The notes below the pieces were generated by a model. The model was not told the origin of the DNA, made no database searches, and worked only from the letters and a program-made list of their open reading frames with translations. This document shows, piece by piece, positions 11,775 to 59,883 of a stretch of DNA of 64,000 nt (position 1 is the stretch's first letter; each line of letters opens with the position of its first letter). A program made the translations under genes and the position numbers. The DNA comes from Escherichia coli (GTDB taxonomy: Bacteria > Pseudomonadota > Gammaproteobacteria > Enterobacterales > Enterobacteriaceae): the NCBI RefSeq assembly GCF_030013595.1, contig NZ_CP122768.1, one strand, 5' to 3'.

Positions 11775-11893
11775 ATGTCAACCGACGGGGACTCTCCCCG
11801 TCATAAACGTTAACGCCCCACTCCTCTCTGTCGCTCAAGAGGTTAATGACGAATAGCAGACAATGCCGAATAGAACATAATGTAAACAAGGCA

Positions 11894-14947: not shown

Positions 14948-17900
14948 TCAGAACGACCAGTTCGCACCAGCCACCGCGTTCCACGGGGATTCCACACCGG
15001 CACCATGGCTATACCCCACCCCGAGATGCCCGCTTAACGAACTGCTGAATGAGGCTTTAATACCTGCCTGATATATTCCACGTCTGCCCGACAAATCATT
15101 GACAAAATTACCGTCATTATTCACTTTCACCCGGTTATCATCGACAAATTCTTTGCGCACAGCCGCCTTCAGCCACGGCTCAACTTCCATGCCGTTCCCC
15201 AGACGCATGTTGTAACTCAGCGTTGCGCCCAGTTCACGATATATACTGCGAGTATCGACTGATTTCGATTCCATACCATTGGATAAATGATATTCGGGGT
15301 TATCAGCGGTGAACCCCGTTAACGATGCATACGGCGTCAGGTTCCAGTTACCATCGGTAAATCGCATCCCGGTTTCAATGTGACCGCCCAGCCCGTTGCT
15401 GCGATAACTGCCGTTGGCGGCTCCACCGCTGCTCATTTTACCGGCTACGTTACTTTCAAAGCGGTTCAGCTTCACGATACCGTCCAGATAGAAACCACTT
15501 TCATGTTCCCAGCTGGCATAGCCCCCCAGAGAATAACTGCCCACACTGCCATGTCCTCCACGATCAAAACCGATATGTGAATGGGAATAACCCATAAAAG
15601 CGCCCAGCGTCGCAATCCCCTCAGGAATATCATTACGGCTGTCGATCCCCACTGTCATTCCGGTCAGCGTCTGCTCAAACCCAGCCCCCGCATCGGTGGT
15701 GACATTATTACGGGTGTTATACGTCGCCCCCCAGACATTATTGTTGTGTGGACTCGCTTTCATTATGTTCAACCGCTCGCGAATACTGTTTAGCTCAGCA
15801 TCAAAGACCAACGGTAATGTTGCTGCCATATTGAGTACGGCAGCCGTAGAAGGCGTGATGCGTTTCTCCGGAACGGGTGTCGGCGTTGGCTCGGGAGTCG
15901 GGTCTGGATTTGGATTTGGATTTGGATTTGGGTTCGGATTTGGATTTGGATTTGGATTTGGATTTGGATTTGGGTTTGGATTTGGATTTGGATTTGGATT
16001 TGGGTTCGGATTTGGGTTCGGATTTGGGTTCGGATTTGGGTTCGGGTTCGGGTTCGGATTTGGATTTGGGTTGACATTATTAGTCAGGTTCCAGTTGCTG
16101 TTGCCGTCGCTTTTCAGGACATACTCATAGGTCCCAAGATCAACGAAACCGCCGGTATTGCCCAGCGAAAACGACGCATCCCCTCCCCCTGTTTTCACCA
16201 GCGTCATCGCATCGTCAGACTGAGGGCTGACGCCGGTATCCTGAACAAAGATTTTAAAATTACCAGTGGCATTGTTGTTGACGACCAGTTGATCGCCCCG
16301 GGAGCCTGCAACGTTGGTATGCAGGTAGAAATTACCGCTGCCGGAAAGTTCACTGGTGGTCAGCGTATTGTAGATATCGTTAGTTGTGGCAGGCGCTGAT
16401 AAATAAACATCACCGTCGTTGAGTAGCAAACTGTTTACTCTATATTCGCAGTTGCTGGTGCCTGCACAGGAATTATTGCTGTTAAGCCAGACACTGCCCC
16501 GGCTGGCAGCCGTCAGGTCGGCAAGCGTCGTATCGACACCATTTCCCAGAGTTAATGTCGCGCTATCGGTAATCCGGACCGCCCCTTCAAGTTTTACTGG
16601 CGTAACATTATCCCGTGGCGTCATTAACGACAGGCTTCCTGTCGCGCCACTGACCGATGCATTCGCCAGCGTACCTGCGTAGACGATTGCCGTCCCACCA
16701 GAGACCTGTAGATCTTCTGCCCGGGCCAGAGCCTGAAACTCATCTTTTGACCGCCCAAGGGTATATTGCCCACCAGAGTTAACCTTTGTGGCGGAGTCCT
16801 GACCCAGGTTTTGCATTGCACCACCCTTGTCAACCGTGGAGTCACGGGCTTCGGTACCTGCTAATACCAATAAATTACCGCCATTTTCCAGCAACATATT
16901 GGTCGCTAAATTGCTGGCAATGGAAAAGGTGCCGTACTGGTGCGTACCGCTGATTTCAATACCGTTAGCCGTGCTCGTCTGGAGAGCGGCACCGCTGTTC
17001 TGGACGATATCTGTCGCTTTGCCATTATCGTTGACTGTCAGCGTTCCGCCTTCATTGATCGTTGTTTTTATTGCCTCTCCGTTAGCTGAAACTGTTTGTA
17101 TTCCGCCGTCGTTAATTGTTGTCTCATTTGCCACACCCTCGACGATTTGTTCACCGCCAGTGAGCGTCGTGCCTGTCGCAGTGGCTTTTGTTTTGACGAT
17201 CTCCCGACCGCCCGCATTGACCTGTGTTTTGGCGGAAGTGGTGTCTGACTCCACGGTTAACACGCCGCCATTTGTCAGCAGGATATTGTTCGCCGCACCC
17301 TGCTCGATGCTGAACGCGACGCCATCAGCGCGTGTCCCTGTGACCCGCGTCGCCCTGGTGGTTGCAACCAACGCGCCCTGACTACTCTGCTGTATCCCCG
17401 TTGCGCTGCCTTTCTCCCGCACATCGAGTATGCCGCCATTGTTAAGTCTGGTGGTATATGCTACAGCCTCCTCGTGGACAATCAGCTTACCGCCAGCATC
17501 AACGATGGTATCTACCGCCGAGGTTTGAGCTACGACCGTCAGTTGGCCGGTATTTTCCAGCACAACATGCTCAGCCCTGCCTCCGGTAATAGTGAAGTGA
17601 GATGACCTCTGGTATCCATCAATATCAGTCCCCGCGCCCGTGTTGGCAACTAAAGCACTCCCCGTGTCCAGGTAAACCCCATGTGCGATACCGCCGGTAT
17701 CGACAATCAGCGTGCCTCCGGCACGAATATTGCTGCCAGTTGCCGTACCTCCTTTCTCAACAACCTGCTTGCTCCCGGAAGAGATATTTGTTGTGTCAGC
17801 TTTCCCGCCGCTCTTGATATTTTGCGTGCCACTGTTGATATTAGTTCCCGTAGCAATACCATGATTATAAATATTCTGTGTACCACCATTAATGATGGTA

Positions 17901-18367
17901 TTTGTCGCGTTTCCGGCAACATCCATAAGCCCGCCATTATCTATTCGGGTCGCATCAGCTTTAGCATTCGTTAAAACTGACATTGTTCCTTTATCGTTAA
18001 TTATCGTTCCTGTAGAAATCCCTCCCTCACTAATTGTCTGGCTGCCACCGTTAATGACTGTATTATTAGCCTGCCCCTGATAAGAGCCATGTCCAGACAC
18101 CTCTTGATGTCCACCAGTATCAATAAGACTTCCATTAGACACCCCGCCATATACCTCCTGCTTGCCGTGATTGATGATATGAGCATTATTTGTTGTACCT
18201 CGTTCATCTACTCTTTGGCTGCCGTCTACAGTCTCATCATTTACAACACCAATAACATTAGAAGTGAAAGCCGTCATCCCGGGAGGGGCATATATCATGG
18301 CAGCTATCAATAAGGAAAGTACTGAGCGGTGAAAATAATAGCGACTGGTTCTGTTCATAAATTTCAT
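14948..18367 (-). CDS. AIDA-I-like (type Va) autotransporter adhesin, apparently intact; sits where K-12 is recalled to carry an autotransporter pseudogene
   Basis: ORF 14948..18487; likely start MKFMNRTSRYYFHRSVLSLLIAAMIYAPPGMTA (extended signal peptide); repetitive passenger, (PN)n linker, C-terminal beta-barrel ending ...AGANWSF. Confidence 0.82.
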   Translation of the reverse strand: MKFMNRTSRYYFHRSVLSLLIAAMIYAPPGMTAFTSNVIGVVNDETVDGSQRVDERGTTNNAHIINHGKQEVYGGVSNGSLIDTGGHQEVSGHGSYQGQANNTVINGGSQTISEGGISTGTIINDKGTMSVLTNAKADATRIDNGGLMDVAGNATNTIINGGTQNIYNHGIATGTNINSGTQNIKSGGKADTTNISSGSKQVVEKGGTATGSNIRAGGTLIVDTGGIAHGVYLDTGSALVANTGAGTDIDGYQRSSHFTITGGRAEHVVLENTGQLTVVAQTSAVDTIVDAGGKLIVHEEAVAYTTRLNNGGILDVREKGSATGIQQSSQGALVATTRATRVTGTRADGVAFSIEQGAANNILLTNGGVLTVESDTTSAKTQVNAGGREIVKTKATATGTTLTGGEQIVEGVANETTINDGGIQTVSANGEAIKTTINEGGTLTVNDNGKATDIVQNSGAALQTSTANGIEISGTHQYGTFSIASNLATNMLLENGGNLLVLAGTEARDSTVDKGGAMQNLGQDSATKVNSGGQYTLGRSKDEFQALARAEDLQVSGGTAIVYAGTLANASVSGATGSLSLMTPRDNVTPVKLEGAVRITDSATLTLGNGVDTTLADLTAASRGSVWLNSNNSCAGTSNCEYRVNSLLLNDGDVYLSAPATTNDIYNTLTTSELSGSGNFYLHTNVAGSRGDQLVVNNNATGNFKIFVQDTGVSPQSDDAMTLVKTGGGDASFSLGNTGGFVDLGTYEYVLKSDGNSNWNLTNNVNPNPNPNPNPNPNPNPNPNPNPNPNPNPNPNPNPNPNPNPNPNPNPNPNPNPNPNPDPTPEPTPTPVPEKRITPSTAAVLNMAATLPLVFDAELNSIRERLNIMKASPHNNNVWGATYNTRNNVTTDAGAGFEQTLTGMTVGIDSRNDIPEGIATLGAFMGYSHSHIGFDRGGHGSVGSYSLGGYASWEHESGFYLDGIVKLNRFESNVAGKMSSGGAANGSYRSNGLGGHIETGMRFTDGNWNLTPYASLTGFTADNPEYHLSNGMESKSVDTRSIYRELGATLSYNMRLGNGMEVEPWLKAAVRKEFVDDNRVKVNNDGNFVNDLSGRRGIYQAGIKASFSSSLSGHLGVGYSHGAGVESPWNAVAGANWSF
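15905..16070. repeat. Tandem hexanucleotide repeat (TGGATT/TGGGTT, about 27 units) encoding in-frame (Pro-Asn)n linker
   Basis: Direct reading: ggatttggatttggatttgg... across about 166 bp; minus-strand translation NPNPNPNP...PDPTPEPTPTP. Confidence 0.9.
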
Positions 18368-18963
18368 CCTCTGAAAAATGAATACTGAGTAGCGTCTAAG
18401 TGACCTAAGCTCTGCTGCAACATCAGCCCGCAGGCACCAGACCAGGGGATTCATCCTGAAGAGACAGCGCAGGTGTATTGTGTTCACCGCTCATCAAAGA
18501 CATCATGATGAAATGATGATATCCCGCATAAGAAAGAGGCACTTTTTAAACGCAGTGCGCTGAAGTGTAGTTGGATAAAAAATCACTCTTTTCTGATAAT
18601 ACTGTCGTACGCTTATTTTTCGACAATGAGGCCGTCGGCAAAATAAAATGACTAATGTAATCGTTGCTGATGAATATCTTCTGCTCACATAAAAATCACA
18701 CAATAATATTGATAAATCAGATTATCTTACCTTTACAACATTGTATTAACAGTCAATGACACTTCTTGAATAAAAATATTGTCAATCAATGAGTTATTTC
18801 TCATTTGAGATTATTCTCATTCCCGTAAAAAACATAATTCCTATCATCACAGTCACGCTCATTTTGAATTATCTGAATAATAGCGAGCGTTCTTTAGTTA
18901 AGCAGATCTTAATTGAAGACGAAATTATTGTGTGTGCAACTTACTTAATACCGGACATCTAAG

Positions 18964-19702: not shown

Positions 19703-22351
19703 TCAGAACTTATATTTCAGGCCCACCATCATTGCGGTGTCATTGTAGCCATTATCACCCAGCTGCACGCCCACATTACCCCAGACGCTGGCCGCCGGAT
19801 TCAGATTGCCATTTACGCCAAGTTTAATTTCCCCCAGATTACGCGCCCCGTCTTGTTCAACTTTCACACCGTTCATTGAGACAGCAAAATCTTTACTGTT
19901 ATGGATCCAGTTCATTTCAACAAAAGGTTCAAAGTCGTCACCGTGCGGACCGCTGTTTTTCTCCTGAGTACGAATAAAGGTGCGGAAGCCGAGTCGGGTC
20001 TGGATGTTGTTATTTGCGTCATTCTCAATACGTGAGCCATTGGCTTCCGTGTGCGCATTATGATCGACGCCCATCCAGATAGCCTGTGCCTGTGGCTGGA
20101 AGATCCACGTATATTTCGCCGCTTCCAGACCAAAGGATTTATTCAGGGCAAAACCGTAACCCGCTTCCAGCGAGACGGTTGCACCTTTCGCGCTATAGGA
20201 TTCATAGGCTAACTCATCCCCTTTCACCGAGTTTTTAAACCAGCTATATTGCGCCCAGGCGTCAATGTATGCGCCTTTTTTACTGATGTCATCGGCAAAC
20301 CCGGTGGCATACAGCCCTGCGCTATAGCCTCTGACACTCCCTTTCGAACGATAATCCGACACGCTGGAATGAGTTGAGTTGTAGTCGCGGGCATAACCAG
20401 CCAACACTCCCAAACGCCAACTGTCACTGTCGGTAAAACCACCGGTTAACAGATCCGCCCCTAACTGCGAGACGTAGCGATGCGAGGTCGTTCTCAACTG
20501 TCCGTTGCTGTCACGCCAGGCATTATGCCCGCCAATTTGTCGTAGCCAAAGTCGGTTTGAACGCTCCTGTTCAGTTACAGGATCGATGTAGCGCGTTTCA
20601 CCTACACGATCGTTCAGACGCATAACAAAAAGAGTGTTAGCGGCTGCCAGGTTGGCGACGTAACTTCCAGCTTCGGGGCGCAGAACGGGAGTAGGCGCAA
20701 CAGTAGGCGCTGAACTTCCTCCGGAGTTTGTTTCACCGCCGCTCGTTGCCTGGAAGTTAGTTAGATACCAGTTTTTATTGGTCGCTTCGGTATTACCTCG
20801 GGTTAATGAATATTCGTAGGCACCGGCGAAAATCCTCGAATCCTTAATAAATTCCCCATTTGATTCCCCCTCAACGCTGATAATCTCTATCCCATTTAAC
20901 GTGTAAGCCCCGCTGCCTCCTGCATTGGTAACTTTAACTCGGGTTGTTCCGGAGGTATTTCCATTAATAACGACTTTATCCGTAGCTGAATTATCATCAC
21001 CCAATTCAGTTCTGAGATGCAATACGCCATTATTACCAACGTAATTTTCAGTTATTGTTAACCTTGTTGGTTCGAAATCCTTTCCATCTGCCCGGGAAAT
21101 ATAGACCGTACTATTGTCAACCGTGAGCTTGCTCACCGTTGAGTCAGCTTTAATATCCCAGGTACTATTATCTGAAAGCGACAGATAGGTATGAGTGCTA
21201 TCATCTGTTGAAAGATTGGCTGAACCCGTTATTTTTGAATTAGATGCATCGATGGACAAATGACCTTTAATATTATTGATAAAAACATCTGCAGCCGATG
21301 ATACCTCACTATCCGTAATGGTCACGTTACTCGTCTCATTTTTATTGTAGAGGATTTCATTTACTGACCGTAGTGAGCTACCAGATAAAATATCTACCGT
21401 TGCTTCCTGACCATTTATGGAAGACTCCAGCACAATTCCAGCCCCCTGATGCGCGACTGCAGATGTATTTTTCAGCGTCACCTTGCCGCCATTATAAATT
21501 TTAGCAATCGCGGCGTCAGGACCCGTTGTATGAATTTCTCCCTGGTTAAATGAAACTGTCCCCTGGCGAGCAGCGATGGCATGAGCATTGTCCCCATGCG
21601 TGGTAATATCAACATCGGTTAATGTAACGCTGGCATTGGTATAATCAAGCTTGTCATCAGCCTTGACGACAGTGCCATTAGCGTACGCGGCATAACTTTC
21701 TGTTCCGTGGGTTGTTATCTCCCCTTTTGCCATATCCAGTTTTGCTATGGCGTTATTTTCATTACTTCCTGTATCGGCAGTACTTTCTTCATCAAGAGAA
21801 GATACACACGCACGCGCGCTTCCGGGAGATGCACACGCAAGAACGCCGACTGCGTGATTACCCGCAGTAACAATAAAAGTATTATTTCCGTCAGAAAAAG
21901 AGGGGGTAACCGAACCGTCAGAGTTGACTCTTATTATGGTATCAGTATTCAGGTTTCCATCAACTTGACTTAACAAACCAACAGAATAATCTCCCGTCGT
22001 GACAATCGTATTATTACCCCGCAAAGTGACAGCACCGCCATATTCACTTACGACTGCGCTAGCTGTATATACTTTGCTTAGAGGACTATTGTCAGAAGGA
22101 TATAAACCGCCCGTTGTTACAATGACGCCATTGTTAATGGTTAAATTGCTACCCTCTCCTGCAACAGATACACCGTAACTTCCATTACCCGTTGTTATAA
22201 CTAGCGCATTATCAATATCTTTTACTTCTCTATCTTTTATTGCCACAGCATGTTTATGTTCCTCGTGCTGAATAAACTGATCAGCATATGCATTACCCAC
22301 CGCCAAAGCAATAAGTCCTAAACTAAACCCGGGGAGTTTTTTCAGTTTCAT
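19703..22351 (-). CDS. Autotransporter adhesin, apparently intact; sits at the ymgF/ymgD position where K-12 is recalled to carry the ycgH pseudogene
   Basis: 882-aa ORF, ATG 22351, signal peptide MKLKKLPGFSLGLIALAVGNAYA, C-terminal beta-barrel ending ...MMVGLKYKF. Confidence 0.82.
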   Translation of the reverse strand: MKLKKLPGFSLGLIALAVGNAYADQFIQHEEHKHAVAIKDREVKDIDNALVITTGNGSYGVSVAGEGSNLTINNGVIVTTGGLYPSDNSPLSKVYTASAVVSEYGGAVTLRGNNTIVTTGDYSVGLLSQVDGNLNTDTIIRVNSDGSVTPSFSDGNNTFIVTAGNHAVGVLACASPGSARACVSSLDEESTADTGSNENNAIAKLDMAKGEITTHGTESYAAYANGTVVKADDKLDYTNASVTLTDVDITTHGDNAHAIAARQGTVSFNQGEIHTTGPDAAIAKIYNGGKVTLKNTSAVAHQGAGIVLESSINGQEATVDILSGSSLRSVNEILYNKNETSNVTITDSEVSSAADVFINNIKGHLSIDASNSKITGSANLSTDDSTHTYLSLSDNSTWDIKADSTVSKLTVDNSTVYISRADGKDFEPTRLTITENYVGNNGVLHLRTELGDDNSATDKVVINGNTSGTTRVKVTNAGGSGAYTLNGIEIISVEGESNGEFIKDSRIFAGAYEYSLTRGNTEATNKNWYLTNFQATSGGETNSGGSSAPTVAPTPVLRPEAGSYVANLAAANTLFVMRLNDRVGETRYIDPVTEQERSNRLWLRQIGGHNAWRDSNGQLRTTSHRYVSQLGADLLTGGFTDSDSWRLGVLAGYARDYNSTHSSVSDYRSKGSVRGYSAGLYATGFADDISKKGAYIDAWAQYSWFKNSVKGDELAYESYSAKGATVSLEAGYGFALNKSFGLEAAKYTWIFQPQAQAIWMGVDHNAHTEANGSRIENDANNNIQTRLGFRTFIRTQEKNSGPHGDDFEPFVEMNWIHNSKDFAVSMNGVKVEQDGARNLGEIKLGVNGNLNPAASVWGNVGVQLGDNGYNDTAMMVGLKYKF

Positions 22352-30282: not shown

Positions 30283-30330
30283 TGGTCTTCATATAAATAT
30301 TCTCGACATGATATTAATAATATCCACATA

Positions 30331-31046
30331 AATAAATATCCTCCGGCATAGCCGGAGGTTTTTCAAATGCGCCTGTAAGGCTCTGTTACCAGCCGCGCCC
30401 TAACAGGCGCATACGATCTGACATTTGCATTCAACTTCGTTACTTACGGCCCGTAAACGGGCTGCCCGGATATGGAATCGATAACTGCTCCCCCATTTTA
30501 TCCTCTTCAAGCTGGTGCTTTATGTAGTCCTGTATCTTCGCCGTGTTCTTACCCACCGTATCGACATAGTACCCTCGGCACCAGAACTCCCTGTTTCTGT
30601 ATTTGAATTTCAAATCCCCAAACTGCTCGTAAAGCATCAGACTGCTTTTCCCTTTCAGATATCCCATAAAGCCGGATACGCTCATTTTGGGTGGGATTTC
30701 CACAAGCATATGGATATGATCTGCGCAGCACTCTGCTTCCAGAATCCGTACGCTTTTCCACTCACACAGCTTTCTCAAAATACTGCCTATCGCCCTACGC
30801 TTCTCTCCGTAAAACGCCAGTCTTCGGTATTTCGGCGCAAAAACTATGTGATATTTACAGTTCCAGCGGGTGTGCGCTAAGCTCTTTTCGTCCCCCATTG
30901 GGACCCCCTTTTGATTTCTTGTTTGACACTTGCAGTTGCCAGACCGCAAGGTGTTTTAACAAATCAAAAGGGGTTTTAATAACTGGCTCAAAGCTGAAAG
31001 CTTTCCGGAACCCCCAGCCTAGCTGGGGGTTTTCTGTGCACAAAAA
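30331..31046 (-). mobile_element. IS200-family insertion sequence, copy B (inverted relative to copy A)
   Basis: Reverse complement of 30331-31046 matches 5664-6379 essentially base for base; encodes an identical TnpA; one end abuts the icdC terminator hairpin. Confidence 0.8.
30440..30898 (-). CDS. tnpA: IS200 Y1 transposase TnpA (second copy)
   Basis: Protein identical to the ORF at 5812..6270. Confidence 0.88.
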   Translation of the reverse strand: MGDEKSLAHTRWNCKYHIVFAPKYRRLAFYGEKRRAIGSILRKLCEWKSVRILEAECCADHIHMLVEIPPKMSVSGFMGYLKGKSSLMLYEQFGDLKFKYRNREFWCRGYYVDTVGKNTAKIQDYIKHQLEEDKMGEQLSIPYPGSPFTGRK

Positions 31047-31093
31047 CAACGGGCGTGTTATACGCCCGTTTCAATATTTAACACATGTAGAGA

Positions 31094-31257
31094 TTACATG
31101 TTCTTGATGATCGCATCACCAAACTCGCTACATTTCAGCAATTTAGCGCCTTCCATCAGACGTTCGAAGTCATAGGTTACGGTCTTGGCGTTGATTGCGC
31201 CTTCCATACCTTTAACAATCAGGTCTGCGGCTTCAGTCCAGCCCATATGGCGTAACA
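31094..31257 (-). pseudogene. icdC: icdC: displaced chromosomal 3' fragment of icd (last ~53 codons), left by prophage integration
   Basis: 31094-31254 aligns with the 3' end of intact icd (58633-58796) with scattered substitutions; similarity stops near 31255; preceded by the same terminator hairpin (31048-31070). Confidence 0.85.
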
Positions 31258-31767
31258 GTATATAAAAACATTAAGTTCAATTCATTGATATTTAATGATA
31301 AAAATTATTTTATTGTCTTTTTATTAGCCAAAATCAACTTTATTCAACCGTTTGATTTCATTGACGTTCGTTTTTATTTTGGGGAAAGGTTTTCTCTACC
31401 ATTTATATCCAAATTACAAGTCTACATTTTATTAACATCTCAATACATGTGAGGCCTTGCAGACCTTTGTGAGACCTTATGTGTCTCTGTTTTGTCCCAC
31501 CTTGTATTACGACTTGCATAGCCAATGAAGATAAATGTGACGACAAACGGCGCGGCAGTCTTCTTTTCCTTCATACTTTCCCCACCCAGCATGCATACCT
31601 TTATGCCATAACTGAAGTTTATGTCTGTTATGAGCGATGAGCGGAAGTTCACTACTTCATGACTAACATTGAAGTGTCCTAAGCAACGGGGAGCAGCTCA
31701 AGGAGTGTGTTAGTGCAATTACACTAACACAGCTACTAAAAATAAAAATACCAAAACTACAGTTATT

Positions 31768-58519: not shown

Positions 58520-58581
58520 AAAATAGCCAGTTTTGGGGAAGGGTTTTGGGGAAAGTTTTGGGGAAGATTTTACATCATCAT

Positions 58582-58609
58582 AAAACAACGGGCGTGTTAT
58601 ACGCCCGTT
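58582..58609 (-). terminator. icd intrinsic terminator (phage-supplied copy)
   Basis: Minus strand: AACGGGCGTATAACACGCCCGTT followed by gtttt, 24 nt after icd stop. Confidence 0.65.
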
Positions 58610-58632
58610 TCAATATTTAACACATGTAGAGA

Positions 58633-59883
58633 TTACATGTTCTTGATGATTGCATCACCAAACTCGCTGCATTTCAGCAGTTTAGCACCTTCCATCAGAC
58701 GTTCGAAGTCATAGGTTACGGTCTTGGCGTTGATTGCGCCTTCCATACCTTTAACAATCAAGTCTGCGGCTTCAGTCCAGCCCATATGGCGCAGCATCAT
58801 CTCAGCGGAGAGAATAATAGAGCCTGGGTTTACTTTGTCCTGACCGGCATATTTCGGCGCAGTACCGTGGGTGGCTTCAAACAGGGCGCATTCGTCACCG
58901 ATGTTTGCGCCTGGGGCGATACCGATACCGCCGACCTGTGCAGCCAGAGCGTCAGAAATGTAGTCACCGTTCAGGTTCATACAGGCGATAACATCATATT
59001 CAGCCGGACGCAGCAGGATCTGTTGCAGGAATGCGTCAGCAATCACGTCTTTAATGACGATCTCTTTGCCGGTATTCGGGTTTTTAACTTTCAGCCACGG
59101 GCCGCCGTCGATCAGTTCACCGCCAAACTCTTCACGCGCCAGCTGGTAGCCCCAGTCTTTAAACGCGCCTTCGGTGAACTTCATGATGTTGCCTTTGTGC
59201 ACCAGGGTCACAGAGTCACGATCGTTAGCAATTGCGTATTCGATCGCTGCACGAACCAGACGTTTGGTGCCTTCTTCCGAACACGGCTTAATACCGATAC
59301 CGCAATGTTCCGGGAAGCGAATTTTCTTCACGCCCATCTCTTCACGCAGGAATTTAATCACTTTCTCGGCGTCGGCAGAGTCAGCTTTCCATTCGATACC
59401 CGCATAAATGTCTTCCGAGTTTTCACGGAAGATAACCATATCGGTCAGTTCAGGGTGTTTAACCGGGCTTGGAGTGCCCTGATAGTAACGTACCGGACGC
59501 AGGCAGATGTAGAGATCCAGTTCCTGACGCAGGGCAACGTTCAGAGAGCGAATACCGCCACCAACCGGAGTGGTCAGCGGACCTTTAATGGCAACGCGAT
59601 ATTCACGAATCAGATCAAGGGTTTCAGCAGGCAGCCAGACATCCTGACCATAAACCTGTGTGGATTTTTCACCGGTGTAAATTTCCATCCAGGAGATTTT
59701 ACGCTCGCCTTTATAGGCTTTCTCGACTGCAGCGTCGACCACTTTCAGCATGGCTGGGGTTACATCTACACCGATTCCATCACCTTCAATGTAAGGGATA
59801 ATCGGATTTTCAGGAACGTTGAGTTTGCCGTTTTGCAGGGTGATCTTCTTGCCTTGTGCCGGAACAACTACTTTACTTTCCAT
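58633..59883 (-). CDS. icd: Isocitrate dehydrogenase (NADP), 3' end supplied by prophage
   Basis: 416-aa [76 protein letters not shown]... Confidence 0.95.

Follow-up and report, generated by a model that had tools for sequence, protein, structure and literature searches.

The 64,000-nucleotide stretch of Escherichia coli DNA analysed here (contig NZ_CP122768.1 of assembly GCF_030013595.1, referred to below as the window) contains an intact gene for an autotransporter adhesin, and between the passenger and the translocator of the encoded protein lies a run of 28 Asn-Pro (NP) dipeptides. The copy number of the underlying hexanucleotide differs among E. coli genomes by whole units, and the tract is an in-frame coding variable-number tandem repeat (VNTR) that changes faster than the DNA flanking it. 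The gene and its parts, listed from the passenger end toward the barrel, are as follows.

14948..18358, minus strand: AIDA-I-type (type Va) autotransporter adhesin gene, intact, 1136 amino acids plus stop
16769..18079, minus strand: passenger beta-helix with AIDA-type repeats, residues 94-530
16082..16438, minus strand: Pertactin-like (autochaperone/junction) domain, residues 641-759, PF03212 at E=1.1e-45
15905..16072, minus strand: (Asn-Pro)28 hexanucleotide VNTR, 28 units read in the gene frame, residues 763-818
15860..15904, minus strand: non-repetitive X-Pro tail of the linker, DPTPEPTPTPVPEKR, residues 819-833
15749..15859, minus strand: segment ITPSTAAVLNMAATLPLVFDAELNSIRERL... before the barrel, residues about 834-870
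15017..15736, minus strand: outer-membrane beta-barrel translocator, PF03797, residues 875-1114, E=5.7e-46

The open reading frame (ORF) that holds the gene spans positions 14948-18487 on the minus strand. Use of the ATG at 18358 gives a protein of 1136 amino acids, and this choice of start agrees with the RefSeq coding sequence of the near-identical strain E. coli SC418 (NZ_LR778147), whose gene differs from that of the window by 3 single-nucleotide polymorphisms (SNPs) in 3411 bp. The N-terminus, MNRTSRYYFHRSVLSLLIAAMIYAPPGMTA, is signal-peptide-like by the form of its sequence and matches the N-terminus of K-12 YpjA, the 29-residue signal peptide of which is in use as a biopart (PMC13101318). 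Eight AIDA repeats were found with Pfam PF16168 at E <= 0.001 within residues 94-530, and TIGR04415 repeats were found with NCBIfam as well. The NCBIfam autotransporter barrel model TIGR01414 scored 306.8 bits against a cut-off of 16; the NCBIfam equivalog models for Ag43, AIDA-I and YfaL did not reach their cut-offs on this protein. The C-terminus reads ...NWSF, thus ending in an aromatic residue. From its barrel and passenger as read in the sequence, the protein is classed as a classical type Va autotransporter of the AIDA-I/self-associating autotransporter (SAAT)-like kind. The gene had been described as an intact autotransporter in the initial annotation, and the signal-like N-terminus, the eight AIDA repeats, the Pertactin domain, the beta-domain and the ...NWSF end all agree with that description.

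The position of the tract within the protein was determined by alignment to solved structures. Residues 436-534 of pertactin (structure 1DAB), which form its C-terminal end, align to residues 663-760 of the window protein, the translocator of BrkA (3QQ2) aligns to residues 854-1136, and the alignment to Vag8 begins at residue 828. The NP tract begins 3 residues past the end of the pertactin-like passenger, and about 35 residues separate its end from the first residue aligned to the solved translocator barrels. The sequence between the Pertactin domain and the translocator therefore consists of (NP)28 followed by DPTPEPTPTPVP, and these alignments uphold the earlier reading of the tract as a linker between passenger and translocator. 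The tail DPTPEPTPTPVPEKR was invariant across all 20 orthologues that we read. The segment ITPSTAAVLNMAATLPLVFDAELNSIRERL that follows was invariant in the family alignment and lines up with the beginning of the translocator structures of Vag8 and BrkA. Judging from other type Va proteins, it may form the alpha-helix that passes through the barrel pore.

Tandem Repeats Finder identified the tract as a period-6 array at 15905-16069 with 27.5 copies, 86% matches, no indels, and the plus-strand consensus TGGATT. When read on the minus strand in the frame of the gene, the array comprises 168 bases and 28 units, each of which codes for Asn-Pro. Four synonymous spellings occur, AATCCA (14 units), AACCCA (7 units), AATCCG (5 units) and AACCCG (2 units), which we coded as a, b, c and d, respectively, and in this code the array of the window reads b a c d d b c b c b c b a a a a b a a a a a c b a a a a. 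An earlier count of about 27 TGGATT/TGGGTT units encoding a Pro-Asn repeat was right in number and in unit type, with plus-strand CGGATT and CGGGTT variants present in addition. A three-unit 18-mer had 17 matches in the window at two or fewer mismatches, every one of them within the array, against a chance expectation of 0.02, and this number was reached in none of 100 shuffles. The array is the sole sizeable tandem array of the window.

Several database and gene-calling signals at the tract reflect its composition. Two overlapping ORFs, one on the plus strand (15696-16130) and one on the minus strand (15790-16077), were rejected as genes; they are read-throughs of the NP repeat as (Gly-Phe)n and (Gln-Ile/Arg-Thr)n, respectively, and are artefacts of a stop-free repeat. 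A phmmer search of the PDB with residues 763-818 gave E-values of about 1e-13 to chains of the Plasmodium circumsporozoite protein, which contain NANP/NPNA repeats, and to the 'AaBgIC' chain of 8zvk; these matches are compositional and do not indicate homology. Searching a protein database with the linker region returned mainly low-complexity Pro-rich matches, among them a protein annotated as TonB, and short partial proteins; a few informative linker variants were recovered in this way, but no distribution of tract lengths.

We examined the genomic position of the gene to establish its identity. In both the window and SC418, the gene lies between minCDE/minE and ymgJ/ymgG/ymgD. The minE-ymgJ interval of K-12 contains only a 344-bp pseudogene remnant, ycgI (b4521), whereas K-12 ypjA (1526 amino acids) is found in the CP4-57 region next to ypjF/yfjZ. 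The window protein is about 95% identical to K-12 YpjA over most of the C-terminal roughly 830 amino acids, but its passenger is about 390 amino acids shorter and its linker is replaced. An orthologue of ypjA would share its locus and show full-length collinear similarity to it, and neither was found. Based on the minE-ymgJ position, the missing passenger repeats and the different linker, the window gene represents the ycgI locus in intact form and is paralogous to ypjA. The RefSeq label ypjA/EhaD, assigned by the Prokaryotic Genome Annotation Pipeline (PGAP) to the window gene and also to the copies L001 and L019, thus reflects similarity only; the autotransporter and its linker stand as first described, with the correction that the label does not denote an orthologue of K-12 ypjA. 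Most genomes contain two places that match the gene. Calls of 'ypjA' presence or absence in surveys of adhesins may consequently mix two loci, as the RefSeq label covers both.

The intact gene is carried by a minority of strains. It is present over at least 80% of the minE-anchored query in 423 of 5426 complete E. coli genomes, with the rest keeping remnants, so that roughly 8% of complete genomes carry the gene and in about 92% it is absent or a remnant. Inactivated orthologues were also found in L003 (NZ_CM149870), L011 (NZ_AP027440) and H110 (NZ_CP080235): two copies, that of L003 among them, are annotated as frameshifted and another is split by IS1203. In the full-text literature we found no description of the intact gene at the ycgI locus or of the NP VNTR, and a review of autotransporters mentions YpjA only as a biofilm-associated member of group 4, without structural data (PMC9289746). 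A second intact autotransporter gene lies nearby at 19703-22351 on the minus strand; it encodes 882 amino acids, is named an 'ECIAI39_1904 family autotransporter adhesin' in the nearest genome, and occupies the position of the K-12 pseudogene ycgH. With the 882-residue gene at the ycgH position and the 1136-residue gene at the ycgI position, both of the autotransporters that have decayed at this locus in K-12 are intact in the window. Related autotransporters of E. coli that are cryptic reportedly undergo silencing in K-12.

To compare the length of the tract among strains, we used the 60 best minE-anchored matches to a query of 1971 bp, of which 59 were usable and one, interrupted by an insertion sequence, was excluded. 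Searching again with the shortest allele brought in another 21 genomes, for a total of 80. The matched spans of the 60 best matches differed from the query by -54 to +61 bp. After calibration for indels of 1-3 bp in the minE-proximal intergenic region, the differences in span among the 80 genomes were multiples of 6 bp, and they resolved into 17 lengths: 19-22, 24-30, 32-35, 37 and 38 units. We read 19 orthologous arrays base by base together with those of SC418 and the window, and these had 19, 19, 20, 21, 22, 24, 25, 26, 27, 27 (plus one Asn-Leu unit), 28, 28, 29, 30, 32, 33, 34, 35, 37, 38 and 38 units. SC418, the nearest genome, has 28 units as does the window, with one synonymous SNP. Every array consisted of a whole number of 6-bp units, the flanking codons were identical, and the frame downstream was intact. 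These data confirm two predictions of the initial annotation, that slippage at this repeat keeps the frame and that linker length is polymorphic between isolates, and they establish the tract as an in-frame coding VNTR.

The internal structure of the arrays is ordered. All of them follow a common formula, bacdd-(bc)n-b-a(k)-cb-a(m), in which the 5' block bacdd is invariant and variation is confined to the (bc) block (12 bp, 2-8 copies) and to two pure AATCCA runs, the first of about 2-5 and the second of about 4-16 units. Changes in copy number occur in steps of 6 bp, or of 12 bp for the 'cb' pair, within these three internally homogeneous sub-blocks. This pattern points to slippage or unequal exchange within identical sub-arrays, and is unlike random sequencing error. 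The sole non-synonymous unit, AATCTA (Asn-Leu), was found in L003, one of the copies annotated as frameshifted. Intact genes contained synonymous variants only, a weak indication, given the small number of independent mutations, that the Asn-Pro identity of the units is maintained.

A potential concern with length differences in such a repeat is whether they arise from assembly or sequencing of a tract longer than a short read. The tract measures 114-228 bp and so nears or exceeds the typical short-read length, and draft contigs start within it or terminate shortly ahead of it. Partial proteins encoded on contigs of about 0.5 kb are numerous among the database entries; two groups of them (P0007 with 53 members and P0008 with 194) end at ...NWNLT(N) immediately before the tract and another (P0018 with 136 members) begins inside it; the start or stop at the tract was confirmed in two such contigs that we read. 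The breaks fit the earlier suggestion that the repeat is a likely source of assembly error, but the ypjA paralogue could cause the same breaks, because the near-identical paralogues diverge at the linker and this is enough to fork an assembly graph; the contig breaks are therefore not decisive. As an account of the polymorphism itself, an artefact is extremely improbable. The arrays are made of whole units with ordered internal structure and differ only in pure sub-blocks, independent complete assemblies of one clone agree exactly, SC418 shares 28 units with the window down to one synonymous SNP, and indel errors in long reads would give frameshifts, none of which was seen inside the arrays.

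Comparison of strains with identical flanking DNA provided a measure of the tempo of change. Five strains (L005, L006, L010, L011 and L013), which are porcine enterotoxigenic E. coli (ETEC) from Belgium, the Netherlands and Japan, have no SNPs in roughly 1.8 kb of flank and carry 27, 38, 37, 38 (of different composition) and 35 units, respectively. When additional porcine ETEC genomes are included, this one flank haplotype carries 27, 32, 33, 34, 35 and 37 units and two kinds of 38. A second set without flank SNPs (L009, L016, L017 and L018) has 19, 20, 26 and 25 units, and further pairs that share a flank have 29 and 30 units (L004/L008) or 21 and 22 units (L007/L015). Strains without a single flank SNP can thus be as many as 11 units apart. 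Setting about 7 length changes against no more than 1 SNP in the 1.8 kb of flank, we arrive at a rough estimate that the rate of length change per locus is on the order of 10^4 times the per-site substitution rate, which is a high value for a site on the chromosome.

Within clones, the tract is identical in length. Identical alleles were found in the sets ETEC6333/6334, ETEC4070/4071, ETEC4077/4079 and EC556/571/581 and in three PRO_A isolates, and 16 records at 24 units are evidently of the same clone. Clones thus look stable, and the rate of change at the NP tract would appear to be orders of magnitude below that of classical phase-variable repeats. Given this low rate and the identical alleles within clones, heterogeneity among the reads of one culture is probably too low to detect, and failure to see it would be no argument against the polymorphism.

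The linkers of ypjA and of more distant relatives offer a natural comparison. The linker of true ypjA is a mixed X-Pro run of KP, DP, NP and IP (K-12: KPNPDPIPNPKPDPKPDPKPDPNPKPDPTPDPTPTPVP); it is found at the matching place and shares the end ...TPTPVPEKR. In the O157:H7 variant and two other variants, this linker has 15-20 X-Pro units. A spread sample of ypjA gave spans of four lengths alone (652, 670, 676 and 682 bp, with a query of 766 bp), and so few lengths in a mixed linker fit with repeat purity driving the instability of the NP tract. Other alleles in the databases have only (NP)3 before KPDPTP..., homologues from Escherichia albertii have mixtures of DP and KP, and in Ag43-like relatives the junction domain passes directly into the conserved ITPST... 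segment without an X-Pro linker. The position thus accommodates from 0 to about 45 X-Pro units across relatives, which argues for the tract being an accessory spacer, not a part of the secretion machinery.

Our preferred explanation, in which we have good although not complete confidence, takes the tract to be a compound hexanucleotide VNTR that preserves the reading frame of an intact adhesin gene and serves as a tolerated spacer. The copy number would change by whole units through slippage during replication or through unequal recombination of identical units. The resulting (Asn-Pro)n peptide is expected to be an X-Pro spacer, extended and non-globular, at the mouth of the barrel on the extracellular side, the alternating X-Pro sequence being situated between two folded domains. 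Alternating X-Pro sequences such as the Glu-Pro/Lys-Pro region of TonB are stiff and extended. The length of the spacer would then set the stand-off of the adhesin stalk from the outer membrane, each residue adding up to about 3 Å if the conformation is like polyproline II. Because the protein would seem to tolerate a wide range of spacer lengths, most of the variation is probably neutral or weakly selected, and the loss and inactivation of the gene (remnants in about 92% of genomes, the IS1203 insertion, the frameshifts) likewise favour weak selection. Stalling of ribosomes dependent on elongation factor P was considered and rejected by reasoning, as the tract has no consecutive prolines.

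Several points weigh against this explanation. The role as a spacer is deduced from position in the sequence. An AlphaFold2 model of residues 641-1136, built from an alignment of 8 sequences, had a mean predicted local distance difference test score (pLDDT) of 37 and a predicted template modelling score (pTM) of 0.28; with such scores it was not drawn upon, and it lends no support to a conformation of the tract or to the pore helix. The strict retention of Asn-Pro, with synonymous variants alone, could mean that the sequence itself matters beyond its length. Recombination between the gene at the ycgI locus and ypjA, which are about 95% identical in their C-terminal parts, could also move linker alleles. 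Lastly, about 80 of the 423 carrier genomes were sampled, and clones are over-represented among them.

The range of lengths also raises the possibility that the spacer acts as an adaptive rheostat, its length being under diversifying or local selection and tuning the reach of the adhesin through O-antigen or capsule, or the packing of cells in auto-aggregation. Taking about 3.1 Å per residue, the value for polyproline II, a fully extended tract of 19-38 units would measure roughly 12-24 nm, a range on the order of the thickness of the O-antigen layer. Very high allelic diversity on near-identical flanks and the restriction of unit variants to synonymous ones would fit such a role. It is established that capsule shields short adhesins, as Schembri et al. 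reportedly showed in 2004. In Salmonella, epitopes of short autotransporter constructs displayed on the surface are masked by the O-antigen (PMC4858243). However, slippage alone would be expected to produce high diversity, length showed no visible association with serotype or host, and the absence or remnant state of the gene in most complete genomes, along with its frequent inactivation, indicates weak selection. We therefore consider adaptive tuning unlikely. Somewhat less likely still is a quantitative contingency locus, in which in-frame slippage would supply a standing range of lengths and selection would match reach to O-antigen, capsule or cell-cell spacing. A more remote variant, an idea that comes from bond chemistry, is a slow self-release timer for the passenger, with the 28 Asn-Pro bonds being prone to slow, spontaneous cleavage through cyclisation of Asn.

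Among the closest parallels in known systems is the R2 repeat, (PQP)n, of the Bordetella type Va autotransporter pertactin, which is likewise a Pro-rich tandem array located where a beta-helical passenger reaches its C-terminal end and differs in frame in repeat number between alleles and species (PMC8931430). It differs from the NP tract in having a tripeptide unit and a handful of copies, as compared to 19-38 dipeptide units, and in belonging to another genus. R2 has also been studied as a polymorphism of a vaccine antigen. For the NP tract, one could propose that an exposed Asn/Pro repeat draws antibody as an immunodominant decoy, with changes in length altering recognition, a role suggested for the repeat regions of pertactin and for the NANP repeats of the Plasmodium circumsporozoite protein. 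The position shared with R2, whose repeat number is variable among Bordetella alleles, and the compositional match to circumsporozoite protein chains would be in keeping with such antigenic variation. But more or fewer identical NP units create no new epitopes, the locus is dispensable in most E. coli, and no antibodies against R1 or R2 were found in the pertactin study (PMC8931430), making this proposal very improbable.

Other systems resemble the NP tract in part. TibA, a self-associating autotransporter of ETEC, contains a proline-rich domain at residues 627-677 between the junction region and the membrane-embedded domain (PMC3835316). From this description, the TibA domain has the same topological position in an AIDA-I/SAAT-type adhesin, but in that study it was not reported as a pure dipeptide microsatellite or as polymorphic in length. 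YpjA/EhaD of K-12 and O157:H7 shares the order of domains and the place of the X-Pro linker; it differs in its mixed linker of 15-20 units with few length variants, in a passenger longer by about 390 amino acids, and in its locus. The (Glu-Pro)n(Lys-Pro)n region of TonB and the Ala-Pro hinge of OmpA are X-Pro repeats that serve as extended inter-domain spacers in envelope proteins. These are periplasmic and, in TonB, have charged X residues, whereas the NP tract is predicted to be extracellular, and such X-Pro rods are not known to behave as hypervariable VNTRs within a species. The simple-sequence contingency loci of Neisseria and Haemophilus share with the NP tract short tandem repeats in genes for surface proteins that change in copy number by slippage. 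The NP unit, in contrast, is a multiple of 3 and so gives no on/off switch, and its apparent rate of change is much lower; an on/off phase-variable contingency locus was rejected for this tract in view of the 6-bp unit and the intact frame of every allele. Our search of the full-text literature on ycgI, on tandem repeats in ypjA and on polymorphism of proline-rich linkers in autotransporters found nothing on the NP VNTR.

Elsewhere in the window, copies of a 3' fragment of icd at 31043-31649 and 58580-58791 (the latter within the icd ORF at 58633-59883) flank a block of about 27 kb that consists mostly of minus-strand ORFs. This block, at about 31043-58791, resembles a prophage or island located at the attachment site of e14 in icd. 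Its content differs from that of the lambdoid prophage found there in SC418, and homology to SC418 ends at about 31.6 kb. Tandem Repeats Finder also reported small imperfect repeats at 58529-58571 (13 bp, 3.4 copies), 30291-30338 (20 bp, 2.5 copies) and 11844-11882 (17 bp, 2.3 copies), the first of which adjoins the icd fragment at the island junction.

Taken together, the polymorphism of the NP tract is real but ordinary variation of a surface protein, an in-frame repeat polymorphism in a spacer that reveals no new mechanism. It has practical consequences for the study of E. coli adhesins. The tract is likely to break contigs or to distort their assembled size. With at least 17 frame-neutral alleles among 80 genomes, it is highly discriminating and also a possible typing marker for carriers of the gene, roughly 8% of E. 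coli. Finally, the linkers found at this position, with 0, 3, about 20 mixed or 19-38 pure units, represent a natural length series for the stand-off of an adhesin through lipopolysaccharide and capsule, and the same series is relevant to the engineering of autotransporters for surface display.

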